Shown: positions 7,820-62,240 of the stretch, piece after piece | How the letters are laid out: each line of letters opens with the position of its first letter | How positions within the stretch are numbered: position 1 is the stretch's first letter | The notes under the pieces: generated by a model | Seen by the model: only the letters and a program-made list of their open reading frames with translations | Told to the model about the DNA's origin: nothing | Databases searched by the model: none | Made by a program: the position numbers and the translations under genes | NCBI GenBank assembly: GCA_027923505.1 | Contig: BROI01000009.1 | Coordinates: 434,001-498,000, forward strand | Reading direction: 5' to 3' | From: Mayamaea pseudoterrestris | Taxonomy: Eukaryota | Length of the DNA stretch: 64,000 nt

Positions 7820-7887
7820 GGTCAACAAGAGTTACAATGAAAGAAGGATGTGATGATGGTCGGCAAACCGCGATGATGGTCAAAAGG

Positions 7888-8066
7888 TGACGTACAAATC
7901 CTTGCTTCCGGCGCAGCGTCAAAGATCGCGAGATACGCTCTTCAACAACCTGTAAGAAGTACAGGCGCCAGATATAAATAGATCATGAAGTGCACGACCC
8001 AACTCATGACAGATTTGAATTCATACGCGCCCATTGGCTTTCTTATACTATCAAAGTGACGTCACT
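7888..8066. promoter_or_regulatory. Candidate bZIP/aureochrome-type TGACGT elements upstream of the LHC gene
   Basis: TGACGT at 7888-7893 and a perfect palindrome AGTGACGTCACT at 8055-8066, about 70 and 240 bp upstream of the LHC ATG. Confidence 0.3.
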
Positions 8067-15748: not shown

Positions 15749-17508
15749 CTATTTGTATACTCGTGGAATGCTATCCAATTCTCCTGGACTTGAGCGAACA
15801 CGCAGCGGAAGATGCTCGCCCGAATCGCCCAGACGAGGCAAGTGTAAATACGCATCCACTCCATGGCCTTCAAGCGACTTCAAGTTCAATTCTCCCCCAA
15901 AATAGCGAGCGTATATGCGAGCAAGGGGCAAGCCAAATCCTCGAATATGCGCGCCGGCAACTTCCTCTGTTCCACCCGATGCCGACGAAAGTGTCACCAC
16001 GACATCTTCGACTGCATCAGTCGAATGTCCAAACTTCCAAATCTTGCCCATGAGTGCTGCGATCAATGAACGAAAGTAAGGATACGCACCGGTGAGTGAG
16101 ACATGCTCTCATTGCCGTCAAATCACTCTACAACAACGACGACACACTATTACGTACACCTCGGGACGCCTCCACCCTTGTCGCAGACCTTGATTGTAAT
16201 GTCTTCCTTGCCCATGACCAGCACGACACGAATGGGAGGTAACATGGGAGCGACTGGATCCCCTAGTCGTTCGTGTCCGCCACTGCTGCTTACCCCATTG
16301 TCTGTTTGGACGAGACAATTCTGCAAGGTGCCTCGTCCATGCGTGCGAACCGTCGCCCGACAAGAATTCATGAGCAGCTCCGCCAACATGTAGTGCAAAT
16401 GATGGGGCACGTAGGTGAATCCAGTGTTGTGCGCCTTTGGTTTTGTAACATGGCGTGACTGCTGCTGCTGCTGCTTTGGTTGAATGCAGTCGACAATGTG
16501 TATGTCCGGGCAGCAACCAAATGCTTGCAGTGTTTGCGCCCTGACTAGCCCCGCCACCTTGCGTGTTTCCTCAACAACATCCACATTGCTTTGAATGCAA
16601 CCAGATATGACTGCTACTCTTGCGTCTTGCTGAGTTGATGCGTTGACGGCCATATTGGACGTCGTAAAAGGGGCCGAAACGCTTTGCGAAAATACGCGCG
16701 AAAGCGATTTGCGATACTCATTTCCACTTCTCGTGGAGGAGACGACATGATGCTCAATCAGGAATCGAAGTCCAACACGCGCCGTAAAGAATCTATAAAG
16801 CGCTTCCTCCAAAATGTCTTGTCGCTCCTGCAAGTCAAGATGATTGTTGCCATGTCCATGCGTTGCCGCCGCTGTCCATTCGCCAACGCCTCGCGCAATT
16901 TGAGTGGGAATCGTTGATCTATCAAGTACAAATGACTGCAGTAGCTGCGTAAATGCATCCTCCTGCGCTGGCGTCTTTGGCGGAGCCATTTCTTGCAGCT
17001 GTTTGATGTATTGGAGATACAAGCGAGCAACTTGGCGGATGGATTCCGCATCCGCCAAGCCCAGCGGGAGGGTCATTAGGTCAACTGCCCGCTGCGCAAG
17101 TCTAATCGCTAGTTCCTTGTGCAGAAATTGAGCATTGTAAAGGCGCTGATCCTGAGATACACTGGAAGCGTACTTGAACATGTCCGCCAAGGAGAGGGGC
17201 GTCGGAGTCTGTGACGCGAGTGCGTGTAACGCGTCTGGGTCCATGTCAAGCTGTTTCAGCACGTCCAAGGGGTACCGAGACTGCGACGAATTGAGGTTAC
17301 TGCTGCTGGCCTCTTGAGCTGCCGCATGCTGTAGAATGGGTTTTACATCAATCGCTGCGGCGCCATGATCTCGTCTCGAATGACAGGATGGAGACCGAAC
17401 AGCTGATGCGATGATTGGCTTCAAGGAAACGGATCGAGATCGACATTGACAGCCGCATGCAGCACCAGGGCTTCGAATTGATACTCCCAGTCGCCAGAGA
17501 CAATTCAT
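15749..17508 (-). CDS. PDK: Mitochondrial pyruvate dehydrogenase kinase (PDK/BCKDK family); exons 17508-16158 and 16056-15749
   Basis: TPLSLADM, NAQFLHKELAIRLAQR, RFFTARVGLRFLIEHH, YVPHHLHYMLAELLMNSCRAT, IKVCDKGGGVPR|SLMGKIWKF and GFGLPLARIYARYFGG motifs. Intron 16057-16157 restores the frame. Start codon could alternatively be 17535. Confidence 0.92.
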
Positions 17509-17859
17509 TTTACTTTTCGTAACTCGGCAAGCCATATTGGGATGCGTTACTCGCGTCGGCTTTGTGACACCATTGTCGTCGTCGATGGTTATCGAACATT
17601 GCGCGACGTAAGCTGTCTGTCGGAGCGGCAATGAAAATTGGGGTTTCAGCGTTCTCGACTGTGATGTGAGGTGTACCACCAAGAATCAGAGTTTTTGCAC
17701 TGTAATCTATCAATTTTTGGCACTGTGGGCCAGAGTGTGCGGCTTATCATTGTAGTGATTGGATCGACGCAACCTTTCCCACTGTTTTCCTCGCTCCTCG
17801 GCTACAGTCCTTTTGATCCCGGGCGACTCATCATGATACATTGTTGCTGTCAACGATTG

Positions 17860-20939: not shown

Positions 20940-21690
20940 AATGGAGCAGTCTATGCACCAGGAACCTTTGCCGCTTTTGTAGAAAGGATGTTATTTGTTG
21001 TTATCGAGCCATCCTGGTTGCAAGCGCACCGATTGCAGCCACCACTTTGGATAAGCCATATTGAAGCTGCAGAAATTCGTTTACAAAGCAAGCAACAAGC
21101 GAATGTACCACTATAAGCGCCAGGCACCGTTGCCGCTATATATAAAGGATAAGACGGGGTTGTTGATTGTTGTTGTTATTGAGTTCTCTCCTAGTTGCCA
21201 CCGAAAAGTCAAGGCGTTGCAAGGGGAGCAGTCTACCACAAAAGCCGCGGCAAGCAAATGCTCTATGGAACGGGTGTTGGTTGTGATATTAGAGCCATCC
21301 TGGTTGCAAGCGAATCCTCACGGTGCGGCAGTGGGAACAATATCCAACTCCAAGCTGCAGAATATTTGTTTAAAATCAAGCGGCAAGCAAATGGACCACT
21401 ATAGTGCCAGGAACCATTGTCACTATTACATAAAAGATTGGACGCGTGTCGATTATTATATTTGAGCCATCCTGGTTACAAGCGAAACGTCAAGGCGTTG
21501 CAATGGGAGCTGTGTACCACTCCAAGCTTCATACTTTTCGTGAAGCAAACAACAAGCAAATGGACTACTATAAATGCCAGCAACCCATGCCGCTCACATA
21601 AAAGGATGGAACATGTGTTGATTGTTATATGTGAGCCATCCTGGTTTCAAGCGAAACGTCAAGGCGTTGCAATGGGGCTGCGGAATCTAT
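20940..21690. repeat. Degenerate ~170-bp tandem repeat (4-5 units)
   Basis: GAGCCATCCTGGTTnCAAGCG core recurs at ~21006, 21292, 21463 and 21633 (degenerate copy at 21181). Shared CAAGCAAATGGACnACTATA and GTCAAGGCGTTGCAA blocks. Confidence 0.8.
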
Positions 21691-31913: not shown

Positions 31914-32180
31914 ATGCTAATAGTTGCGGCCGTCAATGGACTAGAAATACGACAAATACATACAGTGCAATGTGTCTTCTCCTAATTGGAAACGCTGCCT
32001 CGAGATTAAGCTGCATATGGATATACCGTGCTTGAATACATCATCATTGCCACTTTGGACCTTTTAAACGTGTTCAAGAGTTGCCGATTGCCCCAAGGAT
32101 GTATTATGATACGGAGATGCAGATACTCCAAACTGTAGTAATAGTGGTAGGATATATCCGGACATGCTTCACGAGATTAA

Positions 32181-33222
32181 ACACATTCGCGGAGCGGGGA
32201 GGTGGTAGGATCAATGCTTTTTAGGGAGCAGTGGCATTCGCGCGCTTCGCGCGCGCAAATACTGTCAAACCGTAGACAAAAGTAAAATTGATACTGGCCC
32301 CGTAACAATTTGCTTATTTGTAGCCAGAATCTAGATGGGTAGATGCCAACAATTTTTGTCTATATGGAAGAAAAGGAAAGACTAGAGATTGCATAGACGG
32401 AACAGTAATCAATGGCTCTACTGAGAGATTACGCCTAAAGTAAAGCAACATCTCTTGGGATAGCTAACACGGTCATTGCGAGGGGTCATTGTGCATGTCC
32501 GAACATGCTTCACGACATTAATTGGCATGCTGCCACTGCGACACAGATGACGTCAAGCTTTCGGCGCATGCAATGACCCTGACCCTCACAATGACCGTGT
32601 TAGCTATCCCAAAACACATTGCTTTACTTTAGGAGCATGTTTTCAACAAGTCATTAACTACCACTCAATCACTGCAATCTCTAGCCACTCCTTTTGTTCC
32701 ATTTAGAAAGAATTGTTGGCATCAACCCATCAATAGGTTGCTTTGAAGACCAGTGTCAACAACAAAGGAGTCAGTGATATTGCTGTCTCTACTGTTTAAC
32801 AGTGTTGTGTGCACGGAGCGCGCAAATGTCTTTGCAGGCTTTGTGAAACCATTGATCCTACCACCTCCCCGCCCCGCGAATGTGTTTGTGTGATACTGCC
32901 GCTGCGACTGCATGACGTTTCGCTTTGGGCGCCTGCAATGACCACTCACAATGACCGTGTTAGCTAATTCAAATAGCATTGCTTTACTTCACTGTCAAGA
33001 GTATGCTTATAATAGAGCTAATGATTACCACAATTAATGCAATTTCTAACCTCCTCCTCCTGTTCCATATAGACAAGTTTTCAGCATCTACTGTTGCTGT
33101 AAAGGCCAATGTCAATTTACTGTGTCTACTGTTGGCAGGCTTTGTGCGCGCGGAGCGCGCAAATGCCTTTGCAGGCTTCGTGAAACCATTGATCCTACCA
33201 CCTCCCCGCCCCGCGAATGTGT
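32181..33222. mobile_element. Foldback/MITE-like element: three ~330-360-bp related units in orientation > < <
   Basis: ACACATTCGCGGAGCGGGGAGGTGGTAGGATCAATG (32181) is the reverse complement of CATTGATCCTACCACCTCCCCGCCCCGCGAATGTGT (32850-32885 and 33187-33222). The inner block GCTAACACGGTCATTG (32463) also has inverted copies at ~32589 and ~32949. Confidence 0.7.
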
Positions 33223-33397
33223 TATATATGGTGCATATGCCTCACGACTACTCAAATGATTTGCATGCTGTATTTATTAACTTCCGGTGTCGTTCGTTAG
33301 CAACTAAGATTGTCGAATGAACCTTAACGCTATGTGTGGTGTACTTTTTGACGAGCAGTTTCTGCGTCGTTGCGTCGTTGCGTCGTTGCACACTTCC

Positions 33398-37444: not shown

Positions 37445-39547
37445 ATGCAAACCATGCCTGCAGCATCGGTTTTGTGGTGCTCTCCGATTCTGCGTGTTCG
37501 CTCGTTGGTCGCCCTCTCTCGATGGACGTCTCGTCGAAATCGGAGGAATGTTTCGACGGCGGATTGAGAATTTCCGGTGAACGTTCGTCAGGCTATATTC
37601 AATGACTCATAATTATCATTGCCTTGACGCCAGCCTACGCCAGAGCATAATGATTGAATCCGTCCCCTCAAATCGGGCGTCAGAATCCTATATGGATCAC
37701 TATATCGGCAGTCCAATAAGATGAGAGCCCGACTGTCAACGATACCGCTGACTGAAACAATGATTCACATCGACGTTCCGTCCCCGACGAATCGAAGAAA
37801 CCTTCCTTCACCTGCTTGAACAACGATCGGTAGTCGGCCATGAATACTAGAGCCGTAGTCACAAGGAGAAAGACCAATCGCATTCTCTAGTCGCATGCTA
37901 TCATCGGCGCAAAGGAAGTTTACAATAGGTGAACAAGAGGTGCTTGGTATATGAAGCGCTCAAGGAATACAGAGACATTTTTGCTTGGATAGGAGGTACT
38001 ACGCATTAATACCATGAACAAGCCATCACTCGAACCACCATGGATGGCTGGTGAAATCTACGGTCTATAATGACGCAGCCATTGGCGGCGCAAACGACTT
38101 TTGTTTGTATTGGAACAGCGACAGGAAGCAGTAGTAATGGATTAGCCATCGGGCAGTACCCAAATAACTCGCGAGCAACTCGCGAGGTTAGAAGATTTGA
38201 CACCGACCGCCCTGTCAATCAGCCGCGTGTGTTCGTCCGCCGTGCACACCGTTCAAACGAGCACAACATTCAAACCAGCAGGTCAGTCGACCAGCGGTTA
38301 AAGCCACCGATGGCAGCGAACTTGGAAGACTCAAAAGGAACGGACTTGAGCAATTTATATCGAGCCAATTCGTAGTCGGCGATGCAAGCCCCAGTCAAAC
38401 GACATGATGGCAAGGCACGCGACATCAACCACACAGCCGGTTAGAAATTGGACATGTCCAAGGTTGGTACACGCGTACTCCCTTGCATGAAAGACAACCA
38501 TGTCAATCATTTCCGCGAGATCTGCCAAAAATGATGTATTGTTGGAATAAGAATTATCGACGCTCTCTGTCCCACATACGCGACTCGGCTGAATGCGACA
38601 TGTTTTTTCCTCCAAACAACATACTCAATCGTTTCGCATGTGTTATCATCAGCCACGAGACATTTTGCCGAGTAGTGTAGGTTGCAGCATACTGGTACGG
38701 CCGTGCGATGCGATAGACTGCTGAGATGATCTTCACCGTATCGGTCCGATATCGACGTTGTAAAAGATGTTGCGATTTGCTGTCATCTTTTCCGCGCCAC
38801 AAATGGTGTAGCCAATTATATGAACATGCTGCAGTCGTTCATTATCCTCTCTGTATCGGCCCAAGCAGGCTTGTTTGGTTCCCGCAGTGCTGGTGTGCAT
38901 ATAAAATACTCGTGCCTCGTATTGCACTCGTCGCCTTTCGTGAACACGTTGATCTCGTCGTGTCGGTTGTAGACGGAAATGTCGCGCCAGGCTACCAAGA
39001 GTTATACGTCTACGTTATCCGCAACCACCGCTTCAGTCCCCAACCATGGTGACGCATCACAACAGACGTGCCTTTGATGATGACTTTTGAAGCAGCAGGC
39101 AGCAGCAGGGAAACAACATGAAAGGCTGGAACCGATGCTCCGCCGGTTTATCGCTCGCGATTAACCGCTCTGGTGACAGTGGCATGCTCACTTGTCAGCT
39201 ATGACATGGCTGACTCGCTGGAGGAAAGCAAGTCGTGACATCTTGTAAGTCATAATGATGCTACCGATAGTTTGCACGTTGCACCATCGTTCTGATCGAC
39301 GACGTCTGTCACTCTGCCGACTGACGGAACATGGGCGTTTCCAACGTCAAAAAGAAAGCACAGCACTATTCTCAAAGACCCGAACGGCTCAACTTGCAAC
39401 CAGGAGAATATACAGTATGGTCCATCCACCATCAGCATGTACATGCGATGTGCGATGCGCAAGAATGATCTCGTGCAATTTATAGTCAAAATCGCATCGG
39501 GAATGGATAAAACCCGCTGAGACATGCGTCGACTCGATCGAAGGATC

Positions 39548-39900
39548 TGTTGATCTCTCCGAGCATCAATCCGATTCCCAAGGAAGAACCTCAATTCCGG
39601 CCGGCGCGCACATTACCTAAGAAACAGCGCCGGCATGCCAACCTCTCTATATGTTATATGGCTAATTCCTACAAGCCGTATCTATATCAATCCCGTTGCC
39701 TCCAGTTGGCGAGTCGGCGAGGGATGGATCTTGAGCTCCATCCGAGTCGCATGCGACATCCCCTCCAACAGCTCACAACTTGGCAATCTCGTCTTCTACG
39801 TTGCCTCCATGCCATTGACCTTTCAATACTACAGCATAACCAGCAATCTAATCAATCATTCACTACTAACAATAGAGTACTGCGCAACTTAGCATTAGCA
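39548..39900 (+). repeat. 5' LTR (LTR1)
   Basis: TGTTGATC...ATTAGCA; 8 substitutions relative to LTR2/LTR3 by manual comparison. Confidence 0.95.
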
Positions 39901-40053
39901 GAGATTGCCAAGACCGAACATACCAAGCAAGCGATCCATCCAGGCTCTCCAACACTTGCTCCACCCGGCATTCTCTCGACACCTGCTGTCGAATCGACCA
40001 ACCAAGCAACAAGCTCTGCCTGAGCACCAAGCTTCCATCAAAAAAGCAACACC

Positions 40054-43000
40054 ATGGCCGACTCCAAGCCCCTTTACCCGCATACAAAGTTTTCCCCAAT
40101 GGGAACGACAGGAACCATCACGTATGAGGAGTGTCAAGTCTTCAAGAACCAACTTCGAACCAACCTTTGATCAATCGTATCCGACTTTGGTAACGGCTTG
40201 ATGGGACACAGTCACCATTGCTACACTCAAGCAGAATATGACAACCTCTCACCCGGTGACCCATATGTTGCACAAGACTTCCCCGATAATGACCTTGGCC
40301 TGCCCAACAATGCGCCGGCAGCAGTCATCAAAGAAGCAACTCGCCAGCTTGCCATTCAAGTTGCACGTTTCAACCTAGACCGCAAAGTGGCTTCGTCCAC
40401 CAAGGCCATGATCATGGAATGCATGCAAGAAATGTACTACGAAAGCCTCCGCAACGATGACGACGGCTACTTCGGTGTCACTGTTCTCCAGCTCTACGAA
40501 CACATCATGGTGACATTTGGGCGCGTTACAAAAAAGGTACTCAGCACGAACTTGCTTGAAGCAAATGGCGCTTTCGATTTAATCGCACCAGTGGACAAAT
40601 ACATCAACAAGATGAATGCCTGTCGCCGCGTCGCAACGGCCGGCAACGAGCCTATCCTCGACTCACTAGCCATCCGCCTCACCGAAGCAGCCATAACAGC
40701 AACTGGCCAGTTCACCAACGAACTCAACGCACGCATGAACCGCATGGATGCGGATCTCCCAGAGATGTGGGCACAGTTTTGTGTCTGGCTCCACCGTGTC
40801 GACGAAACACGCCGCAACAACAAGACGGCGGCCAATGCGGGCTTCCATGGCCAAGCAAACCATGTCCAAGAGAAAGTCAAAGCGAGTACTGTCCAAGAGT
40901 TCTCTCCAGAAACATTAGCGGCATGCTTTGCGCTCTTTGCGCAAGCCAACGCGGCGACGGCGCTCAGCAACACAACGAACACGCATAACAATCAAGTTCC
41001 TCGCGTCAAGAAGTATTGCTGGACGCACGGCGGATGCGGGCATACAAGCCAACAGTGCACTCACCAAAAGGAAGGACATCAAGTCGCGGCCACTTGGGCG
41101 AACAAGATGAATGGCAAGGAAGGAAACCTCACCTACCGCAACAACGGCAACCGCTCCACGCAGGAATAGGATGGAGGGACGGCATCAGCTAATAGTTCAA
41201 CTAATAAACAGTGGTTAAATGAACTTGATGTCTCCTCCCCACCTATACACTGTAAAGCAATCGCCGACACCGGATGCACCGGCCATTACATCACATCCAT
41301 GCTCCCGTACTCAAACAAGCAGCCAGCTTCACCAGGAATCACCGTCACAGTCCCCAATGGCACCACCATGCAGTCCACGCACACAGTACTCCTAGATCTA
41401 CCAGGATGCTCGCCCGCTGCACGCCAGGCGCATGTTTTCCCAGACATGGCAATGTCTCTACTCTCCATTGGCGCACTATGCGACGATGGCTGCACCGCAG
41501 AGTTCACAGCAACAACAGTCACAGTCTCCAAAGGCGACCAAATCATACTCGCAGGGACACGAGACAGTGACACAAAACTTTGGTCATGCAACATGAACCA
41601 GCACCTACCGACAAGCACAAACTATGCACTCTCCATGTATCAGCCTCACACAGTCGCTGACCGCGTGGCCTACCTCAGCGCCACCATGGGATCTCCAACA
41701 GTTTCCACCTTGTGCAAAGCGCTGGATAATGGGCATCTCACCACGTTCCCCAGTGTCACCTCCCAGCAAGTACGAGCTCATCCACCGCGATCCACAGCAA
41801 GTGCAAAAGGACACCTTGATCAGACCAGAAAAAATGTTCGCTCTACAAAAAAGCATGTCGCAAATCACGTCATCGACACTGCAGCTGACATTGAAGCCGA
41901 TATGTACCCAACTCAATCAGATCCACCAGCGCAACGCGAGCACCGCATTTGGGCAAGCGTCAAAGAAGCCACCGGAAAAGTGCATTCGGATCTCACAGGG
42001 CGTTTCATGCAAGTCTCCAGCTCAGGAAACACAAGCATGCTAGTCGTCTATGATGAAGACAGCAATGCGATTCTCGTCGAACCTTTGAAGAATAAGACAG
42101 GCGCCAGCATTGTTGCGGCGTACAAAAAGATCCATGAACTACTATGCTCTCGAGGACTCAAGCCACAGCTTTAACGCTTGGACAATGAAGCCTGCAAAGC
42201 ACTCAAGGACTTTATGCGCGAGCAAGACATTGATTTTCAATTGGTTCCTCCATACAATCACCGTCGCAATGCCGCAGAGCGTGCCATTCGCACATGGACA
42301 AACCACTTTGTTGCCATCCTCTGTGGCACCGATCCAAAGTTTCCACTCCGACACTGGGACCGCCTCCTCCCGCAGGCTGTCATCACACTTAATCTGCTTC
42401 GCACATCCAGAATCAATCCAAAACTTTCAGCGTATGCCCAGCTGCATGGTGCTTTTGATTTTAATCGAACACCAATGGCACCACCAGGAACGCGAGTCAT
42501 CATTCATGAGAAAGCAGATAAGCGCCAGTCCCAGTCGCCACACGGAGTTGATGGCTATTACCTTGGACCAGCAATGGAGCACTACCGCTGCTACCGAGTC
42601 TATGCCACTGAAACAGACGCTGAACGTATTGCCGACACTCTCGCTTGGTTTCCATCCCAAGTCGTCATGCCTACACCGTCTACCAACGACATAGTCTCCG
42701 CACTGATCAAGGACCTGCTCCATCTTCTACAAAATCCGCGACCATCCGCCCCTGTGGATCCTATAGTCTCGTCGCACACGGAAGAAATCAAACGCCTAGC
42801 AGCCATCTTTGCCTCCATGAACAACGTCGACGTCCCAGCTGACTTTATCACCCCACTCGGTACGCCCGCGGCGGACTCTCCAAGGGTGCCATCTAACCAG
42901 TCACCAATTGCTGAGCGACCAAGTGTACCCCCCGCCGAATCTCCAAGGGTGTCTGCAACACCGGCTATACCATGCGAGTCTCCAAGGGTGCCACAAGAAG

Positions 43001-45117
43001 AACCAGACACAACAAACGTCTTTGCGCCAATGCCAGCACCAACAAAAAGTGCCATCCATCGCGCGCGACACACAACGCCCAAGCAAGTAACGTTCAACAA
43101 CGCGTTGGTTTCCACAGCATCACGCTCCATCACGTATGCGCACGCTACACGCAATGCAGACCAACGCCGGCGCCGCCAAAAAGCAGCAACAACAAAAGCT
43201 GAACTCAAACAACGCATCGCATCCGCAGAGCGTTTCAATTTTCGCAAATGCAATCCCATTCAGCCCACTGAACGTGCCACTACCCGCTCACAGCATGGCA
43301 TCTACAAACCGTCCAGCAAGCTACAAGCCAATGCCGTCCTCGACGAGCAAACTGGCAAATCCCTCGAATACCGTCACCTCATTCAGGGTGATGAACAGGA
43401 AAAATGGAAGCGCGCCATGGCGATGGAATTAGGACGACTCTCCCAAGGATGCAAGCAGCAGCCCATTGATGGCACTGAAACACTGTTCTTCATCAGCCCC
43501 AAGGACATTCCACGCAACAAACAAGCCACCTACTGTCGCATTGTTGCCAGCATTCGCCCCAACAAAGAGGAAACATACCGCGTTCGCCTCACAGCAGGAG
43601 GAGACAGAATTGATTACCCTGGCCAAAAAAGCACTCCAGGTGCCGACATCCCCACTGTCCGCATCCTCCTCAACAGTGTCGTGTCAACTCCTGGTGCCAC
43701 TTTCCACACAGTTGACATCAGCAACTTCTACCTCGGCACGCCTATGGAAGAATATGAGTACATGAATCTCAACATCAAGGACATCCCACAATGCATCATT
43801 GACGAATATGATCTTACCTCCAAGGCAATCAATGGAAAAGTCACCGCCGAGCTCCGCAAGTCCATCCCAGGTTTGCCCCAAGCCGGTTACCTATCCTACC
43901 TCCGTTTACGCAAGCACCTTCTAGCACATGACTTCATTGAGCAATTGAACACACCAGGCCTCTTTACCCATGCCACACGGCCACTAGCCTTCTGCCTCGT
44001 CGTAGATGATTTTGGAATCAAAACAGTTGGATTGGAACACGTTGAATATCTAACAAGCGTTCTTGAAAAGCAATACAAAATCACCATTGACCTCAAAGGT
44101 GACAAGTTCCTCGGCCTGCAATTAAAATGGGACTATGTCAACCGCACAGTTGAACTCTCCATGCCCAATTACGTGAAGAATGCGCTGAAACGCCTACAAC
44201 ATCCAACACCCGCCACACCACAAGACTCTCCCTATCCATTCACGGAACCTGTCTATGGCACTAAAAAACAAATGGCCACTGAGGATACATCCCCGGCTCT
44301 GTCACCTAAAGGCGTCAAACACTTACAGATTGCCTGCGGCCTCTTCCTTTTCTACGCGCGCGCTGTTGACAACAGAATGCTCAAGCCACTCAACGCGCTT
44401 GCCTCACGGAAACCGACTGAAGACCTCAACCAAGCTCTCAATCAGTTTTTAGACTATGCAGCCAGCCACTCCAATGCCGTCCTGGTATTCAAAGCGAGCG
44501 GCATGTACCTTGTAACCGTCAGCGATGCCTCTTACCTATCTGAAGCCAATGCTCGATCCACATATGCCGGAATCCATTTCCTCTCCAATATGCCCACGGA
44601 TCCCACCAAGCCACCGCAAGCTAATGAGCCACTCCCTGAAGAGAATGGTGCCATCCATACCAGCGCCAAAATCCTCGACGTTGTTGTCTCCTCAGCCGCT
44701 GAAGCCGAACTGGGTGGACTCTTTCACAACGCCAAGGACGCCACTGTCTTCCGCCAAGTCCTCGAAGCCTTGGGACACAAGCAACCGCCTACCCTCATCC
44801 AAGTCGATAACAGTTGTGCGGTTGGCATTGCCAACAATGCCGTCAAGAACAAACGTTCCAAAGCCATGGACATGCGGTACTTTTGGATCAAGGATCGCGT
44901 CGCCCAAGGCCAGTTCATCGTCTACTGGCGCAAAGGCAGTGAAAACGCTGCTGACTACTTCACCAAGCATCATTCGACGGCTCACCATCGCCTCATGAGC
45001 AACAAGTATGTCAAGGACCTCCCAGGTCCTCCCTTGCAAGGGTGTGTTGATCTCTCCGAGCATCAATCCGATTCCCAAGGAAGAACCTCAAGGCCGGCCG
45101 GCGCGCACGTTACCTAA
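40054..45117 (+). pseudogene. gag-pol of copy 1 (single frame; nonsense stops TGA 40168 and TAA 42172; gag/pol UAG at 41167)
   Basis: Gag zinc knuckle CWTHGGCGHTSQQC; protease AIADTGCTGHY; integrase HSDLTGRF...LDNE...HRRNAAERAIRT; RT LVVDDF; RNase H SDASYLSE, AAEAE, QVDN and ADYFTK. The ORF ends inside LTR2. Confidence 0.92.
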
Positions 45118-45397
45118 GTAACAGCGCCGGCATGCCAACCTCTCTATATGTTATATGGCTAATTCCTACAAGCCGTATCTATATCAATCCCGTTGCCTCC
45201 AGTTGGCGAGTCGGCGAGGGATGGATCTCGAGCTCCATCCGAGTCGCATGCGACATCCCCTCCAACAGCTCACAACTTGGCAATCTCGTCTTCTACGTTG
45301 CCTCCATGCCATTGACCTCTCAATACAACAGCATAACCAGCAATCTAAACAATCATTCACTACTAACAATAGAGTACTGCGCAACTTAGCATTAGCA
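45045..45397 (+). repeat. Shared middle LTR (LTR2)
   Basis: 353 bp, apparently identical to LTR3. Joined directly to internal sequence equivalent to 39965, so the PBS-containing 64 bp is missing. Confidence 0.95.
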
Positions 45398-45486
45398 CCG
45401 GCATTCTCTCGACACCTGCTGTCGAATCGACCAACCAAGCAACAAGCTCTGCCTGAGCACCAAGCTTCCATCAAAAAAGCAACACC

Positions 45487-48400
45487 ATGGCCGACTCCAA
45501 GCCCCTTTACCCGCATACAAAGTTTTCCCCAATGGGAACGACAGGAACCATCACGTATGAGGAGTGTCAAGTCTTCAAGAACCAACTTCGAACCAACCTT
45601 TGATCAATCGTATCCGACTTTGGTAACGGCTTGATGGGACACAGTCACCATTGCTACACTCAAGCAGAATATGACAACCTCTCACCCGGTGACCCATATG
45701 TTGCACAAGACTTCCCCGATAATGACCTTGGCCTGCCCAACAATGCGCCGGCAGCAGTCATCAAAGAAGCAACTCGCCAGCTTGCCATTCAAGTTGCACG
45801 TTTCAACCTAGACCGCAAAGTGGCTTCGTCCACCAAGGCCATGATCATGGAATGCATGCAAGAAATGTACTACGAAAGCCTCCGCAACGATGACGACGGC
45901 TACTTCGGTGTCACTGTTCTCCAGCTCTACGAACACATCATGGTGACATTTGGGCGCGTTACAAAAAAGGTACTCAGCACGAACTTGCTTGAAGCAAATG
46001 GCGCTTTCGATTTAATCGCACCAGTGGACAAATACATCAACAAGATGAATGCCTGTCGCCGCGTCGCAACGGCCGGCAACGAGCCTATCCTCGACTCACT
46101 AGCCATCCGCCTCACCGAAGCAGCCATAACAGCAACTGGCCAGTTCACCAACGAACTCAACGCACGCATGAACCGCATGGATGCGGATCTCCCAGAGATG
46201 TGGGCACAGTTTTGTGTCTGGCTCCACCGTGTCGACGAAACACGCCGCAACAACAAGACGGCGGCCAATGCGGGCTTCCATGGCCAAGCAAACCATGTCC
46301 AAGAGAAAGTCAAAGCGAGTACTGTCCAAGAGTTCTCTCCAGAAACATTAGCGGCATGCTTTGCGCTCTTTGCGCAAGCCAACGCGGCGACGGCGCTCAG
46401 CAACACAACGAACACGCATAACAATCAAGTTCCTCGCGTCAAGAAGTATTGCTGGACGCACGGCGGATGCGGGCATACAAGCCAACAGTGCACTCACCAA
46501 AAGGAAGGACATCAAGTCGCGGCCACTTGGGCGAACAAGATGAATGGCAAGGAAGGAAACCTCACCTACCGCAACAACGGCAACCGCTCCACGCAGGAAT
46601 AGGATGGAGGGACGGCATCAGCTAATAGTTCAACTAATAAACAGTGGTTAAATGAACTTGATGTCTCCTCCCCACCTATACACTGTAAAGCAATCGCCGA
46701 CACCGGATGCACCGGCCATTACATCACATCCATGCTCCCGTACTCAAACAAGCAGCCAGCTTCACCAGGAATCACCGTCACAGTCCCCAATGGCACCACC
46801 ATGCAGTCCACGCACACAGTACTCCTAGATCTACCAGGATGCTCGCCCGCTGCACGCCAGGCGCATGTTTTCCCAGACATGGCAATGTCTCTACTCTCCA
46901 TTGGCGCACTATGCGACGATGGCTGCACCGCAGAGTTCACAGCAACAACAGTCACAGTCTCCAAAGGCGACCAAATCATACTCGCAGGGACACGAGACAG
47001 TGACACAAAACTTTGGTCATGCAACATGAACCAGCACCTACCGACAAGCACAAACTATGCACTCTCCATGTATCAGCCTCACACAGTCGCTGACCGCGTG
47101 GCCTACCTCAGCGCCACCATGGGATCTCCAACAGTTTCCACCTTGTGCAAAGCGCTGGATAATGGGCATCTCACCACGTTCCCCAGTGTCACCTCCCAGC
47201 AAGTACGAGCTCATCCACCGCGATCCACAGCAAGTGCAAAAGGACACCTTGATCAGACCAGAAAAAATGTTCGCTCTACAAAAAAGCATGTCGCAAATCA
47301 CGTCATCGACACTGCAGCTGACATTGAAGCCGATATGTACCCAACTCAATCAGATCCACCAGCGCAACGCGAGCACCGCATTTGGGCAAGCGTCAAAGAA
47401 GCCACCGGAAAAGTGCATTCGGATCTCACAGGGCGTTTCATGCAAGTCTCCAGCTCAGGAAACACAAGCATGCTAGTCGTCTATGATGAAGACAGCAATG
47501 CGATTCTCGTCGAACCTTTGAAGAATAAGACAGGCGCCAGCATTGTTGCGGCGTACAAAAAGATCCATGAACTACTATGCTCTCGAGGACTCAAGCCACA
47601 GCTTTAACGCTTGGACAATGAAGCCTGCAAAGCACTCAAGGACTTTATGCGCGAGCAAGACATTGATTTTCAATTGGTTCCTCCATACAATCACCGTCGC
47701 AATGCCGCAGAGCGTGCCATTCGCACATGGACAAACCACTTTGTTGCCATCCTCTGTGGCACCGATCCAAAGTTTCCACTCCGACACTGGGACCGCCTCC
47801 TCCCGCAGGCTGTCATCACACTTAATCTGCTTCGCACATCCAGAATCAATCCAAAACTTTCAGCGTATGCCCAGCTGCATGGTGCTTTTGATTTTAATCG
47901 AACACCAATGGCACCACCAGGAACGCGAGTCATCATTCATGAGAAAGCAGATAAGCGCCAGTCCCAGTCGCCACACGGAGTTGATGGCTATTACCTTGGA
48001 CCAGCAATGGAGCACTACCGCTGCTACCGAGTCTATGCCACTGAAACAGACGCTGAACGTATTGCCGACACTCTCGCTTGGTTTCCATCCCAAGTCGTCA
48101 TGCCTACACCGTCTACCAACGACATAGTCTCCGCACTGATCAAGGACCTGCTCCATCTTCTACAAAATCCGCGACCATCCGCCCCTGTGGATCCTATAGT
48201 CTCGTCGCACACGGAAGAAATCAAACGCCTAGCAGCCATCTTTGCCTCCATGAACAACGTCGACGTCCCAGCTGACTTTATCACCCCACTCGGTACGCCC
48301 GCGGCGGACTCTCCAAGGGTGCCATCTAACCAGTCACCAATTGCTGAGCGACCAAGTGTACCCCCCGCCGAATCTCCAAGGGTGTCTGCAACACCGGCTA

Positions 48401-50550
48401 TACCATGCGAGTCTCCAAGGGTGCCACAAGAAGAACCAGACACAACAAACGTCTTTGCGCCAATGCCAGCACCAACAAAAAGTGCCATCCATCGCGCGCG
48501 ACACACAACGCCCAAGCAAGTAACGTTCAACAACGCGTTGGTTTCCACAGCATCACGCTCCATCACGTATGCGCACGCTACACGCAATGCAGACCAACGC
48601 CGGCGCCGCCAAAAAGCAGCAACAACAAAAGCTGAACTCAAACAACGCATCGCATCCGCAGAGCGTTTCAATTTTCGCAAATGCAATCCCATTCAGCCCA
48701 CTGAACGTGCCACTACCCGCTCACAGCATGGCATCTACAAACCGTCCAGCAAGCTACAAGCCAATGCCGTCCTCGACGAGCAAACTGGCAAATCCCTCGA
48801 ATACCGTCACCTCATTCAGGGTGATGAACAGGAAAAATGGAAGCGCGCCATGGCGATGGAATTAGGACGACTCTCCCAAGGATGCAAGCAGCAGCCCATT
48901 GATGGCACTGAAACACTGTTCTTCATCAGCCCCAAGGACATTCCACGCAACAAACAAGCCACCTACTGTCGCATTGTTGCCAGCATTCGCCCCAACAAAG
49001 AGGAAACATACCGCGTTCGCCTCACAGCAGGAGGAGACAGAATTGATTACCCTGGCCAAAAAAGCACTCCAGGTGCCGACATCCCCACTGTCCGCATCCT
49101 CCTCAACAGTGTCGTGTCAACTCCTGGTGCCACTTTCCACACAGTTGACATCAGCAACTTCTACCTCGGCACGCCTATGGAAGAATATGAGTACATGAAT
49201 CTCAACATCAAGGACATCCCACAATGCATCATTGACGAATATGATCTTACCTCCAAGGCAATCAATGGAAAAGTCACCGCCGAGCTCCGCAAGTCCATCC
49301 CAGGTTTGCCCCAAGCCGGTTACCTATCCTACCTCCGTTTACGCAAGCACCTTCTAGCACATGACTTCATTGAGCAATTGAACACACCAGGCCTCTTTAC
49401 CCATGCCACACGGCCACTAGCCTTCTGCCTCGTCGTAGATGATTTTGGAATCAAAACAGTTGGATTGGAACACGTTGAATATCTAACAAGCGTTCTTGAA
49501 AAGCAATACAAAATCACCATTGACCTCAAAGGTGACAAGTTCCTCGGCCTGCAATTAAAATGGGACTATGTCAACCGCACAGTTGAACTCTCCATGCCCA
49601 ATTACGTGAAGAATGCGCTGAAACGCCTACAACATCCAACACCCGCCACACCACAAGACTCTCCCTATCCATTCACGGAACCTGTCTATGGCACTAAAAA
49701 ACAAATGGCCACTGAGGATACATCCCCGGCTCTGTCACCTAAAGGCGTCAAACACTTACAGATTGCCTGCGGCCTCTTCCTTTTCTACGCGCGCGCTGTT
49801 GACAACAGAATGCTCAAGCCACTCAACGCGCTTGCCTCACGGAAACCGACTGAAGACCTCAACCAAGCTCTCAATCAGTTTTTAGACTATGCAGCCAGCC
49901 ACTCCAATGCCGTCCTGGTATTCAAAGCGAGCGGCATGTACCTTGTAACCGTCAGCGATGCCTCTTACCTATCTGAAGCCAATGCTCGATCCACATATGC
50001 CGGAATCCATTTCCTCTCCAATATGCCCACGGATCCCACCAAGCCACCGCAAGCTAATGAGCCACTCCCTGAAGAGAATGGTGCCATCCATACCAGCGCC
50101 AAAATCCTCGACGTTGTTGTCTCCTCAGCCGCTGAAGCCGAACTGGGTGGACTCTTTCACAACGCCAAGGACGCCACTGTCTTCCGCCAAGTCCTCGAAG
50201 CCTTGGGACACAAGCAACCGCCTACCCTCATCCAAGTCGATAACAGTTGTGCGGTTGGCATTGCCAACAATGCCGTCAAGAACAAACGTTCCAAAGCCAT
50301 GGACATGCGGTACTTTTGGATCAAGGATCGCGTCGCCCAAGGCCAGTTCATCGTCTACTGGCGCAAAGGCAGTGAAAACGCTGCTGACTACTTCACCAAG
50401 CATCATTCGACGGCTCACCATCGCCTCATGAGCAACAAGTATGTCAAGGACCTCCCAGGTCCTCCCTTGCAAGGGTGTGTTGATCTCTCCGAGCATCAAT
50501 CCGATTCCCAAGGAAGAACCTCAAGGCCGGCCGGCGCGCACGTTACCTAA
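45487..50550 (+). pseudogene. gag-pol of copy 2, apparently identical to copy 1 (offset 5433)
   Basis: All ORF-track translations repeat at +5433, including the same stops (45601, 46600, 47605). Confidence 0.92.
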
Positions 50551-50830
50551 GTAACAGCGCCGGCATGCCAACCTCTCTATATGTTATATGGCTAATTCCT
50601 ACAAGCCGTATCTATATCAATCCCGTTGCCTCCAGTTGGCGAGTCGGCGAGGGATGGATCTCGAGCTCCATCCGAGTCGCATGCGACATCCCCTCCAACA
50701 GCTCACAACTTGGCAATCTCGTCTTCTACGTTGCCTCCATGCCATTGACCTCTCAATACAACAGCATAACCAGCAATCTAAACAATCATTCACTACTAAC
50801 AATAGAGTACTGCGCAACTTAGCATTAGCA
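50478..50830 (+). repeat. 3' LTR (LTR3)
   Basis: TGTTGATC...ATTAGCA followed by the TSD GGATC. Confidence 0.95.
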
Positions 50831-51230
50831 GGATCACCTCGGTCGTGATCCAAAGCGACCATGACGAACTCGTCGTCTGATGCCGCCTTGAGACCCGTTT
50901 AGTCGAGACAATGCAGACTCGCAATCGTGACTATACTCTCGAGTGTTCATTTGAAAATGCCAGTGGAGATTAGCGATTCAAATTTTTTTTCGTCGCAATT
51001 CTGTCGATGCAAAAGAAAGGAATGATTGTAAAGAAAGGGATGCGCCATGCTCCATGCCTGCTACAATAATGATACATTCGTTCGACGCAAGCGCATTTTG
51101 ACTATCTTGAAAATATGTTTGCGTCGGTACCCTTTCTCTACTGGCTGTGAGGTCAAAGTTTTAGAATCTGACTTGCGCGCCAAGCTTTTCGAGATTCACA
51201 CTTTGCATTCCAACACGTACAGATCGAATT

Positions 51231-54200: not shown

Positions 54201-56551
54201 CTTTCGTTGCAGGCTGTAGAGCATTCGCGTCCAGGGATGTATGACCTTGTTTCAAGCGCCCAGCAGCCAAAGCATACGTATCTCGGCTGTATGTTTAGCT
54301 ATGACGCTTCTGTTTGAATTCATAAGCCAGTTGATGTATTCCCGAGTGTTGGTGTTGTTGTTTAATGGCAAAGGGGTATTTAAATAGTTGGCTCCAATGG
54401 CATCTGCGTATTTTCTCAGCTGAGAGGACAATATTCTCGACCTAAGCGATGAAAACCGCCAAGTTTCTGCCTCTGCTTGCGTCATTATCGGCAATGCAAA
54501 CCGCATGATTTACCTCGTCTTGTGTTATCGCTCTGCCGTTTACCGCAAGTTGATATCGTCCCTTTTGTACTCATCGGAATGATTAATGAAGGTTCGTCCG
54601 GCCTTGATCGTGGCCGTTTGGATTTGTGAGCACAGACGTTTAGCAACGCATCAGACTTTATTGATGATGCAAGCAACAAGCATCTTCAAGACACCAATAT
54701 TGCCGCTGCTATCGTTACCGCACCTCTGTGCTTTGTGCGTCCCATAACCTCATAATGCACGACACCATTGCTGCTGCTTCTCACGACATTGCGAGTGAAA
54801 TGCCACTGCTAATTTTGCGGCATCCACTGTCACTCGCGTCTGCACACAACTTTTTTCGGTGCAGCTTCTTCTCAAGACGATGGTGAATGAATGCCTAAGC
54901 TTGTGCAACTGCATTTCGTCTCCACCCGGCTCCACCGAAAGTCGCCTACGCAGGATCCTTCAGCCAATCAAGCACACTCGAGTTATTCCCTGAACGCATT
55001 CGGAATATTCCTGGTGAAGCTGCGGTAAAATCGCCGAATGTTGCCTGCCTGCCTCATACTTGTGCACAAAAAGCGCCATCATAATAAAGATGGTTGGTTG
55101 TTAGCTAGCGCGACGCATCAATAAGCGGCTCTCGATGCTATCATCCAGCGTGGCCTGAGCTTGTGAGTTCGAACCATGAAAGGCAGCGCGGTATTAGTGT
55201 TTGTCTTCCAAGACGTCGTGCTTCTCTGCCTGCCGCTACCGTAGATTTCGCCGCCGTCTCATTTTCCCGTGTAAAAATGCACTTGCCAGCAGCGTGTCAC
55301 CGACACACACTCTAGGGGCTCCAAGGGATAGCGCAATACGTGGCTTCCAAACCTTCCTCGATTCCTCCTTTTAGCGCAATATCTTTGCTTCCATCGTCGT
55401 CTGTTGCAGTGACTGTTTATGAGAGATTTGCATGGAACTCGACCAAATGTTGTGCGCCATATGTAGCTGAGACTTGGTCGGTCGACAAGTTCCAACGTCA
55501 TCGCAGTCATTCCTATGACATGGCACTGTAGATTCTAGTTGTTGTTCATGTGGGCGCAAAATTAGAAAGCTTTATGATTGACAGCAAGCGGTTTGTCGTG
55601 GCCAATGAAAGACTTCCGACTCGTCCAGAACAATCAAATTTGACGTCGCCTAGGCGTGTATCGGCGCGCTTACAAAATCAAGCACAAGGATTGATGATTT
55701 TGTAGTCTTACGCCAGCCGGTGCATTTGAAATGGAACGATCATTTGAGCTGACTTTGGCAGTACTTGTGACGTTGTATGATGAAGTTGATGTTGCCTCTT
55801 CGCTGCTAATAGTGACTGTCGATTAGTTAGGTTGATTGTCAGCGCAGTTGAGTCAGAGACCGCTCCCGAGTACTGTTGTACCGTTGATGCTTGACGCTTC
55901 GAACGTTGTCGAATCAGGCAAGCAAGATACGCGTCAATCCATGGAACAAGGTGCTGTAAAGGTGCAATCATTACCATGAGTGGCAAGGATGAGTCCGATG
56001 CTATGGCATAATGTATAATGATTGATTTTCATGCATATGTATCTATAAATCGTCTCATTGTACAAACTCAAGTATGCGATTGTCGAAGTTAGCTTTGTAT
56101 TCGCTGTAACTCCTGGCCATGGCTCGAAAAATCCGCCGCAATGAAGTTTGGATTTGTGCTTCAGACTACTGGTAAAGGCCAAACTGAGCGAAAGCCAAAC
56201 TCTGTAACGTTTTATGAATGATGCCATGTACTCGTATTCATGCGAGATCTGTGAAAGCTTTGATAATAAAATGACGGAACCACTGCCTGCCAAGCAAAAT
56301 AATGTGATCTTGCGATAAAGTAACGATTACCAGTCAGACAATCAATACCGTAACGACATGTGTTGCTCATGAGCGACGTTCAATTTGCCCTCGCTGACGG
56401 TTTGTAGTGCACGAGAGACGCTCCGGAGTGTCACGGTCACGGCGACCATGGGATCATGAGTTTCGCATCATTATTTCAACATCAAAAATAAAACATCATC
56501 ATTAATGAAGCAGTCTGCGGCCGCCTGCCAAAGCATCCATGCGTTTTAAAC

Positions 56552-57961
56552 ATGAATAGTACAACGAGTCGATATTCGACTAAAGAACGTAGTCGGAGGA
56601 TTGGTGTCTGTCTCGTAAAGCATTTGCTGCTTTTGCTGCTCGCACTTTCCTTCGCTTCTCCTCGCACCTCCGCTGCCGACGATGCTGCTGCACGGAAACC
56701 GACGCGCAAGAAGGAGTCCGACGCTGCGCTCTTTCAAGTTTCGGATCAAGTCAGAGTCATTGGCCCCACTCAATTTCCATCGCCAACTCGAACGCTCGAC
56801 TTGCGCTACAATCAAACCATTTCCATCCTTGTGAGACCCTCCTACGGAAAGCATCGACCGGAAGCGGACGCTATTTTGGCTTATGCGGAAGGATACCAAG
56901 TCGCCTACTATATCATGTTTATGGAAACTTTACAAGGGACTGGTTACAAGGGAGATGTCGTATTGGCGATTGCAAATGATTCCTACCTTCATGATGGCGT
57001 CAAGGAATACTTGCTAAAGTTCGTCATGAATCGCGACGACCACATACAACAGCACGAAGACTCCAAGCAGACTGGTACTCAATTAAATGTTATCATTTAT
57101 CAATTGGATCTGGATTGTGATGGCACGCCAGACGGTAAGCGGGCTGTCATGGATAGAAGCAAGGCGACGGATGTTTTTCAAATGTGTAGACTCGATCACA
57201 TTTACGGGTACAACGACAAGGAGACTGGCGAAATGCTTCCACTAAAGGATCCACGCGAAGGTAGAGTAGTCGCAACGCTCCGATACGAATGGTACTGGAT
57301 TTGGACGCGCCAATACTTTTCGCATTCGTGGCTCATGTTGATTGACGCCCGCGACACCTTTTTTCAGTCGAATCCCTTTGCAAATCTTCCAAGACGGTCA
57401 ACTGCCAACTCGACTGCAGACGTTATCGACGGACTGTTGTACTTTTTCGGTGAAAATGCCGACGCGACCCGCCTTGGTAAGTCACGCAAGAACGCCAATT
57501 GGTTGCGAAACGGCTATGGCGCAGGTTTACTTGATGCACTAGCAGAAAAGCCAACCATTTGCTCCGGTTCGTCAATGGGCGAACAAGTGGCTCTGGAAAC
57601 GTACTTACGAGCACTCATTAATGAACATGACGAAGGTAGTGTGCGCATGACCGGCTCCGACCAAGGATTTCACAACTACTTGTACTACTCGGGCAAGCTA
57701 CTGAATGCTGCAACCATTTCCAAATTGATCGTTTGGGAGCAAGGACGCGGCTTGATCAACAACCTTGGCGCGCTCCGAACAAATACCTTGACAAATTGGG
57801 GAGTCCGCGATCCAGACACTGATGTCGTTTATCAGTGGGACGGCGAAACTCCATCGCCCGTCGTGCACCAGTGGGATCGCGACAAGGATCTGCACAACTA
57901 CATGCTAGCCAAGCACCGCACATGGACGAAAGAGTGGGAGACAAAGCAGCTGCATCAATAG
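56552..57961 (+). CDS. Type II membrane/secretory glycosyltransferase-like protein (GT-A fold, DxxD-type motif)
   Basis: N-terminal hydrophobic anchor; RYEWYW, LIDARDTFFQSNPF, ICSGSSMG, DQGFHNYLYY and VVHQWDR motifs. Confidence 0.75.
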   Translation: MNSTTSRYSTKERSRRIGVCLVKHLLLLLLALSFASPRTSAADDAAARKPTRKKESDAALFQVSDQVRVIGPTQFPSPTRTLDLRYNQTISILVRPSYGKHRPEADAILAYAEGYQVAYYIMFMETLQGTGYKGDVVLAIANDSYLHDGVKEYLLKFVMNRDDHIQQHEDSKQTGTQLNVIIYQLDLDCDGTPDGKRAVMDRSKATDVFQMCRLDHIYGYNDKETGEMLPLKDPREGRVVATLRYEWYWIWTRQYFSHSWLMLIDARDTFFQSNPFANLPRRSTANSTADVIDGLLYFFGENADATRLGKSRKNANWLRNGYGAGLLDALAEKPTICSGSSMGEQVALETYLRALINEHDEGSVRMTGSDQGFHNYLYYSGKLLNAATISKLIVWEQGRGLINNLGALRTNTLTNWGVRDPDTDVVYQWDGETPSPVVHQWDRDKDLHNYMLAKHRTWTKEWETKQLHQ

Positions 57962-61475: not shown

Positions 61476-62240
61476 CTAACCCCTTCCAGGACGGTGTCTT
61501 CGAAAGATTGATGGAATCCGGCTCGAGATGGACCTTGTCGCTTCTGTAGTTGGTGCTAGTCGACGGGCAGTGGCATCACGAATCATTCGCTCGCAGTCTT
61601 TACGAGCCTTGCGAGCATCCCGAACGTTTAAAAACGGTACCTTGACTCCATCCTTTCCTCCAAAGCACAAGCAGTCACTCTCCATGTCGATGACACATTG
61701 AAACCGTCTCATTTGATCCAATCCGAGCACAACCGATGGCAGCTCCGAGTCCAGCACCAAAAAGTATAGTCTAAACTCGACATGCCCAACGAGACAAATC
61801 AGATTCTCCACGACTCCCACAATATTAGCACTTCCAACGCCTCCGCAGGCACCGGAAACACTAGCATTGAGCTTGTCCATCAACCCAAGCTTTCGCAGGA
61901 CAACAAGACTCATGGCTGACATTGACGCACCCGAGTCAACCAGTAGATTCACCTTGCGATCATCAAGTGTGCAGTTGACAAATAACATGTGATCATCTTG
62001 CTGTTGAAGGTTGAAGAAGCCATGCTCGACTTGAAACTCATTGGCAGCAGTCGTGGCGTCTTCTTGGACGGATCTCAAGGCAGCCGACGTTTCTCGTGCC
62101 GCAAATTCTTCAGCCGTTTGAAGGTCAAGGGCAAGCTGCATGTCGCGAGCCATGAGCTCGTCTGCCATAGTGACAGTGGATGAGCTTGTCTTGTTGTTGT
62201 CATCATTGACATTCCGGTCGATGTTGCTGTTGGCGGACAT
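61476..62240 (-). CDS. DDI1-like retroviral-type aspartyl protease (no UBL/UBA domain)
   Basis: MLFVNCTLDDRKVNLLVDSGASMSAMS, GVGSANIVG, VLGLDQMRRFQCVID and VPFL motifs. Confidence 0.85.
   Translation of the reverse strand: MSANSNIDRNVNDDNNKTSSSTVTMADELMARDMQLALDLQTAEEFAARETSAALRSVQEDATTAANEFQVEHGFFNLQQQDDHMLFVNCTLDDRKVNLLVDSGASMSAMSLVVLRKLGLMDKLNASVSGACGGVGSANIVGVVENLICLVGHVEFRLYFLVLDSELPSVVLGLDQMRRFQCVIDMESDCLCFGGKDGVKVPFLNVRDARKARKDCERMIRDATARRLAPTTEATRSISSRIPSIFRRHRPGRG

Follow-up and report, generated by a model that had tools for sequence, protein, structure and literature searches.

Which molecule primes reverse transcription in an LTR retrotransposon whose first bases behind the 5' LTR are complementary to that very LTR? 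This question is raised by one locus in the stretch of DNA analysed here (64,000 nucleotides, referred to as the window). From the sequence alone it had been read as a copia element without a TGG-type tRNA primer-binding site (PBS), which would, in the manner of Tf1 from Schizosaccharomyces pombe, use the 5' end of its own transcript as primer. We followed up this reading within the window, in related elements from metagenomes and in the literature.

The element and the complementarity at its LTR boundary

The locus comprises two element units sharing a central LTR. Its features are as follows.

39543..39547: target-site duplication GGATC, left copy; identical 5-mer at 50831-50835
39548..39900, plus strand: 5' LTR, 353 nt, TG..CA; aligns to 45045-45397 and 50478-50830
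39722-39728 / 39737-39743, plus strand: U3 hairpin GGATGGA/TCCATCC, read from the sequence
39746-39757, plus strand: palindrome GTCGCATGCGAC, read from the sequence
39773..39778, plus strand: initiator-like motif TCACAA with the predicted transcription start C39776
39779..39790, plus strand: LTR arm CTTGGCAATCTC, proposed self-primer; perfect complement of 39901-39912
39791..39900, plus strand: spacer, 110 nt, proposed rest of R plus U5
39901..39912, plus strand: putative primer-binding site GAGATTGCCAAG, complementary to the element's own LTR
39901..39964, plus strand: 64-nt leader segment including the PBS; missing after the middle LTR (alignment of 39300-40700 with 44800-46200)
40054..45117, plus strand: gag-pol frame (protease, integrase-like, RT, RNase H), ATG 40054 to TAA 45115
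45036..45044, also 50469-50477, plus strand: polypurine-tract-like GCAAGGGTG, directly before the LTR
45045..45397, plus strand: middle LTR, followed at once by the homologue of 39965, without PBS
45398..50830, plus strand: second unit, 5,433 bp (internal region plus LTR 50478-50830), 100% identical to 39965-45397 (self-BLAST)
50478..50830, plus strand: last LTR, 353 nt, TG..CA; closes the second unit
50831..50835: right copy of the target-site duplication GGATC, adjoining the last LTR

The LTRs at 45045-45397 and 50478-50830 are identical, and the 5' LTR differs from both at eight positions (39595, 39596, 39612, 39622, 39732, 39822, 39830 and 39852). None of these falls inside the arm 39779-39790, which is the same in all three LTR copies. 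Since the three copies together with the target-site duplication fix the limits of the LTR, the 12-mer at 39901-39912 represents the first bases behind it. This 12-mer is the exact reverse complement of the arm, with 12 of 12 positions paired, and the stem is not extendable on either side, A39778/A39913 as well as G39791/A39900 being unpaired. The 12-nt self-complement at the LTR boundary put forward in the sequence-only reading thus proved exact when both sequences and the limits of the 353-nt LTR were re-read, and the upstream hairpin and palindrome to which it had drawn attention as possible promoter elements are present at 39722-39743 and 39746-39757. The number of such complements expected by chance amounts to 2.0e-5 (342 sites / 4^12), or to 2.6e-5 if the base composition of the LTR is taken into account, and none of 100,000 LTR shuffles contained the complement, which reproduces the earlier estimate of about 2e-5. 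Of all 10- to 12-mers in the internal region (5,144 nt), only those beginning at 39901-39903 find a perfect complement in the 5' LTR, and no other perfect inverted repeat of at least 11 nt with a spacing of 40-400 is present in the whole element. The observation is confirmed as real and as lying far beyond chance.

The assignment to copia likewise withstood inspection. The RT domain matches Pfam RVT_2 (E 3.4e-10, 40.4 bits versus a cut-off of 31.6), and further features of a Ty1/copia element are present, namely TG..CA at the LTR ends, a target-site duplication of 5 bp and, ahead of the 3' LTR, a polypurine tract. At the position of this tract, the relatives L057 and L039 carry GCGAGGGTG. Upstream of the RT, a protease motif (DTG) and integrase-like motifs of the D..D..E type (DLTGRF, RLDNE, RRNAAERAI) can be recognised in the translation, both by eye only; a Pfam search at E<=1 gave nothing usable for gag, protease or integrase, the integrase family being absent from its matches. 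A weak SH3_retrovirus match (E 0.006) lies upstream of the RT in the relative P0018. The nearest Atlas clusters carry the name Ty1/copia-type RT and belong mostly to Bacillariophyta, the phylum being known for just 3-4 of their members. Elsewhere in the window, two frames on the minus strand, 6624-7922 and 16150-17682, encode a chlorophyll a/b-binding family protein and a branched-chain ketoacid dehydrogenase kinase-like protein, respectively; both host genes lie in long uninterrupted frames and fit an intron-poor photosynthetic protist.

The gag-pol frame is interrupted by three in-frame stops (TGA 40168, TAG 41167 and TAA 42172) and terminates within the LTR (TAA 45115). This copy is defective and non-autonomous, being inactivated by the three stops, all of which could be explained as C>T changes of CGA, CAG and CAA. 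In contigs of public runs the family is multi-copy, and other family copies from runs X1, X2 and X4 have C at the position corresponding to 40168 (CGA); the samples in question thus contain copies with less damage.

The order of the locus is LTR-leader-internal-LTR-internal-LTR, with one target-site duplication (GGATC) around the composite. At the tandem junction, the last base of the middle LTR is joined to the homologue of 39965, the 64-nt leader with the PBS being skipped. The 5,433-bp tandem could be a recent, real duplication or an artefact of assembly. Its origin from an autointegration circle of this copy's own cDNA, which would give exactly such a junction between the LTR end and 39965, was considered and rejected because the R-U5 variants of the 5' LTR (39822, 39830, 39852) are missing from both downstream LTRs. 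The agreement of contigs from runs X1 and X2 with the window ends at 39963, where they pass into unrelated sequence; this is the same point at which the tandem junction re-enters the internal region. This suggests that family members differ or recombine at 39963-39965. Arrays of the type LTR-internal-LTR-internal, or circular permutations thereof, with a PBS after each LTR, are also found in the related loci L049 (1864-2098 / 7359-7589 and following), L059, L066, L063 and L036; the identity between the two units of L049 is no more than about 86%. It seems that such tandem or cyclic arrangements are frequent in assemblies of this element's family.

Further repeats were noticed in the window. 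A direct repeat of 1,646 bp (55381-57026 and 62355-64000) is 100% identical, its second copy being cut by the window end, and the region between its copies holds an ORF on the minus strand (61476-62240) with retropepsin-like aspartyl protease domains, probably part of another LTR element. Comparison of the window with itself moreover shows short diverged tandem and inverted repeats of 78-89% identity at 21266-21680 and 32180-33223.

Pairing and covariation in related elements

A protein search yields over 2,000 relatives that are about 50% identical, nearly all of which are unnamed metagenome proteins. A scan of metagenomes led to 521 confirmed loci, the best 80 of which were used. Loci that extend 450 nt or more beyond the RT-RNase H match, or 3,600 nt or more ahead of it, are expected to span the LTR/leader boundary; this applies to 52 of the best 80, and the RT-RNase H identity of these 52 relatives amounts to 45-53%. 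A script searched for stems in which 10 or more of 11 positions pair, 9 or more of them in Watson-Crick fashion, and which start right after [CT]A and are accompanied by CAY[TAC]A at the upstream arm. Among the best 80 of the 521 loci it detected such a pairing in 45 of the 52 expected ones and in 5 loci outside this group. The sequence-only reading had proposed that missing conservation of the pairing in related copies would speak against it; the outcome is the opposite.

The significance of these numbers was assessed on a control consisting of the pol coding sequence of the same loci. If the motif is ignored, perfect Watson-Crick pairing of 11/11 is present in 32 of the 52 loci, compared to none in 124,399 nt of the pol control. 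At the loose threshold the pol control contains 74 matches per 124 kb, 3 of them with the motif, and from these three motif-bearing matches it follows that about 6 of the 50 detected pairings could be false. In 11 of the 42 distinct PBS sequences just 9-10 Watson-Crick positions are paired. A perfect inverted repeat of at least 11 nt is found in 25 of 40 post-pol segments of 650 nt, compared to 3 of 142 coding segments.

Seven of the 52 loci escaped the script (L001, L018, L031, L040, L061, L073 and L074). L031 contains a perfect 12-nt pair next to the motif variant CATAC, L040 was recovered by a covariance model (see below) with a 2-nt bulge, and in L073 an imperfect pairing, split across the contig ends, can be seen by eye. 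No convincing pairing was found in L001, L018 and L061. Both LTRs together with their flanks are present in three loci. In L057, which has identical LTRs and the target-site duplication GACTT, an 11-nt PBS begins at the first base behind the LTR. In L039, the PBS pairs perfectly over 10 nt with the arm of the 3' LTR, and the arm of the 5' LTR carries one G>A exchange. L045 features a 12-nt pairing at the boundary with one mismatch. The G>A exchange in the 5' LTR arm of L039 (223-300 and 5337-5422) is located at a CpG and represents decay of the pairing after insertion.

These data bear on the notion that the inverted repeat is a product of chance in a decayed element. The copy is indeed defective, with its three stops, and inverted repeats of 9-10 nt occur elsewhere in it. 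Against this stand the chance expectation of about 2e-5 with 0 of 100,000 shuffles, and the presence of the pairing in 45 of 52 relatives compared to 0 perfect matches in the 124-kb control. We assign virtually no probability to the chance reading, which is already refuted by the comparative data.

The 50 loci from the best 80 of 521 harbour 42 distinct 11-nt PBS sequences, which, together with those of the window and of L031, make up a set of 44 non-redundant elements. Arm length ranges from 11 to 14 nt. The spacer between the arms measures 21-61 nt in the relatives, and that of the window, with 110 nt, is the longest of the 44 and about twice as long as the next. The first base of the PBS is G in 40 of the 44 elements, whose LTRs mostly end in TTAGCA, TCAATA or TCAACA.

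To which extent the two arms change together was analysed in two alignments. A gap-free alignment of 20 relatives shows changes on both sides at 13 of 13 pairs, so the compensatory covariation which the sequence-only reading had asked to look for is found across the family at every position of the stem. In the same 20 sequences, 95.0% of the cells are paired, compared to 61.0% in shuffles (0 of 500 reach the observed value), and pairing drops to 26-45% if the partner is slid by 1-3 columns. In a model-based alignment of 39 distinct sequences, 94.8% of the cells are paired compared to 61.7%, and from this alignment RNAalifold predicts exactly the stem formed by PBS and arm and no other. Both sets were chosen for pairing and the 39-sequence alignment was fitted to the structure; the frequency controls are unaffected by this choice. 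A first MAFFT alignment of 43 segments was dropped as it had aligned on TCATAA, which left arms of unequal length out of register. Compared with the arm of its own element, a PBS has on average 10.7 matches in 11 positions, compared with the arms of other elements 4.8.

A covariance model built from the 20 relatives, with the window sequence left out, reports matches at E<=1 in 40 of the 80 loci. With its default filters on, this model misses the window at E<=1. With the filters switched off and the search confined to 39000-46000, the segment 39772-39915 is the top match (19.3 bits, with a rough E of 0.014 that refers to these 7 kb only). At the level of sequence, covariation of this kind proves selection for pairing, not for priming.

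Primer, transcript start and proposed mechanism

A conventional primer for the element would be a host tRNA. In agreement with the sequence-only reading, which had noted the lack of a TGG-type PBS, TGG is absent from the first 15 nt behind the LTR of the window, and only 2 of the 44 elements contain TGG within the first 8 nt. Within 60 nt behind the LTR there is no 8- or 9-mer common to more than 3 of the 44 elements. A whole or a half tRNA used as primer is expected to leave such a common sequence, which makes a tRNA primer unlikely. Priming by a host tRNA, a half or a fragment thereof, as in copia, Ty5 and Osser, with an incidental match to the LTR, can still draw on the fact that half-tRNA priming is described as common among copia lineages (PMC6317226). 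A scan for tRNA genes, confined to the window and 20 relative loci, found none. Yet within one protein family we encounter 42 distinct PBS sequences, each of which matches its own LTR, and tRNAs are far too conserved to account for such diversity; the scarcity of TGG near the LTR end and the lack of a common k-mer point in the same direction. We thus deem a tRNA primer very improbable.

The sequence around the upstream arm offers a clue to the start of the transcript. A conserved TCA(T/C)AA adjoins the 5' side of this arm or slightly overlaps it. Among the 32 perfect-pairing loci, which were chosen blind to the motif from the best 80 of 521, 29 have CA[TC][TA]A at the arm. For diatom genes, TCAH(+1)W has been proposed as an initiator-like element (Kadono et al. 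2015, as outlined in PMC4686930). TCAHW is located at the arm in 32 of the 44 elements, a set chosen using a related motif, for which reason 29/32 is the unbiased figure; its +1 position most often precedes the first paired base by 3 nt (16 elements) or 2 nt (7 elements). The other 12 of the 44 elements lack TCAHW at the arm, 9 of them having CCATAA or CCATTA instead. As background, TCAHW has a frequency of 0.010 per position over the 300 nt upstream. The motif TCA(T/C)AA fits the initiator-like motif of diatoms, from which we infer a start about 3 nt before the arm, at C39776 in the window. The earlier suggestion that the transcript starts near 39779 is thereby backed indirectly, via a motif match. 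Contig ends, inspected in case they marked transcript ends or poly(A) sites, revealed no pattern.

If the RNA from 39776 to 39930 is folded, the MFE and centroid structures alike contain the 12-bp stem (z = -3.28), and none of 200 shuffles is as stable. The predicted folds of 14 of 14 relatives keep their own stem. The fold of the window contains an extra inner helix, inner helices being variable among these 14 relatives, and no U5-IR-like inner helix is conserved in the consensus fold of the 39 sequences.

Taken together, we consider it likely that the locus harbours a non-autonomous, divergent Ty1/copia-type element, probably from a diatom, and that its lineage primes the minus strand with its own RNA rather than with a tRNA. 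Self-priming of the Tf1 type is well supported by the sequence comparisons; the transcription start, the cleavage by RNase H and the use of the primer are parts of a model. Transcription would begin at the initiator-like TCACAA, at about C39776. Nucleotides 4 to 15, approximately, of this RNA (39779-39790) would then fold back onto the 12 nt that follow U5 (39901-39912), and the RNase H of the element would cut the RNA where the paired 5' segment ends on its 3' side. The freed 5' fragment of about 15 nt could prime the copying of U5 and R. According to the general scheme of reverse transcription, the PBS of the progeny would be copied back from the primer during plus-strand strong-stop synthesis. 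With the PBS rewritten in each cycle, perfect complementarity would persist alongside free drift of the sequence.

The conserved stem might, alternatively, serve as a structural RNA of the 5' leader with a role in packaging, dimerisation or translation control, or as a stem of the U5-leader type, while another, unrecognised primer is used. Covariation as a sign of selection for pairing is compatible with such a non-priming role, and stems formed by U5 and leader around the PBS are indeed in use in retroviruses and Tf1 (Lin & Levin 1998, as cited within PMC7175516). On the other hand, the 3' arm starts at the first base behind the LTR in the window as well as in L057, L039 and L045, i.e. exactly where a PBS must lie. 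Furthermore, no other conserved candidate PBS is present within 60 nt. Under this explanation, the element would have no site for a primer at all. We regard a purely structural role as unlikely, albeit less so than priming by a tRNA, and retain self-priming as the preferred explanation.

Relation to known elements and significance

To our knowledge, self-primed reverse transcription has been experimentally established only for Tf1, and the copia cases, which come from plants, are proposed from sequence only. The element studied here resembles Tf1 and Tf2 of S. pombe and the Tf1/sushi group in that no tRNA PBS is recognised and about 11-14 nt behind the LTR are complementary to the LTR. As in Tf1, the stem dominates the predicted fold. 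The differences are equally clear. Tf1 is a Ty3/gypsy element, whereas the RT found here is of the copia type (RVT_2). In Tf1, pairing involves the transcript from nucleotide 1, while here, provided that the initiator reading holds, the first paired base would lie about 3 nt inside the predicted transcript. Finally, Tf1 needs its U5-IR, in contrast to which the present elements share no conserved inner helix of this kind, and the mechanism is proposed here from sequence. For Tf1, the experimental proof of self-primed reverse transcription is covered in PMC7175516.

Another comparison is offered by the TAR lineage of plant copia elements, for which Neumann et al. (2019) predict self-priming, citing the proposals made for Houba and Osr-1 (PMC6317226). 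The same paper defines complementarity by at least 10 bp which start 0-5 bp after the 5' LTR and are complementary to it (PMC6317226). The present element is, like TAR with Houba and Osr-1, of the copia type and shows post-LTR complementarity as defined there. TAR elements belong to land plants; the host here is, in contrast, a probable diatom and the relatives stem from aquatic metagenomes. The statement in the sequence-only reading that experimental proof is lacking for copia elements stands, yet self-priming in the TAR lineage had already been predicted in print (PMC6317226).

With the diatom copia elements CoDiI, CoDiII and CoDi6 (Maumus et al. 2009, PMC2806351) the element shares the probable host group and a divergent copia RT, and it fits the ranges given for CoDi elements (length 5.2-8 kb, LTR 153-844 bp; PMC2806351). 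The main text of that paper (PMC2806351) mentions neither primer-binding site nor tRNA nor priming. Identity with Blackbeard, Surcouf or PtC34 of Phaeodactylum was considered and rejected, as 9 published primers gave no match in the window at up to 3 mismatches. The fungal copia element GalEa, according to its description in PMC5445492, is similar in having no tRNA PBS and a conserved structure at the PBS position. In the same description, however, its 'Conserved Hairpin Site' is a local palindrome without complement in the LTR, while here the partner resides in the LTR, 21-110 nt upstream. A search of full-text literature produced no record of a self-complementary PBS in diatom elements, although supplementary tables may hold one.

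To the plant elements, the present data add a second copia lineage, which is phylogenetically distant from the first and abundant in metagenomes of marine and freshwater origin. In this new lineage the PBS is self-complementary as a rule, with a covariation signal of unusual clarity. A hairpin-primed ancestor has been proposed for LTR elements. We incline, with some reserve, to the wider view that a widespread copia lineage of diatoms and other aquatic protists gave up tRNA primers in favour of a conserved initiator, a fold-back of about 15 nt and a PBS rewritten in each cycle, be it independently of Tf1/sushi or as a relic of such an ancestor. If this holds true, a widespread self-priming lineage would explain why 42 PBS sequences differ from each other and yet always match their own element, and these elements would be independent of host tRNAs. 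It would also explain the rapid divergence of the leader in such elements. For annotation it follows that PBS finders which rely on matches to tRNAs will miss elements of this kind. Diatoms, as far as they are transformable, would offer a tractable system in which to ask whether self-priming has evolved more than once.
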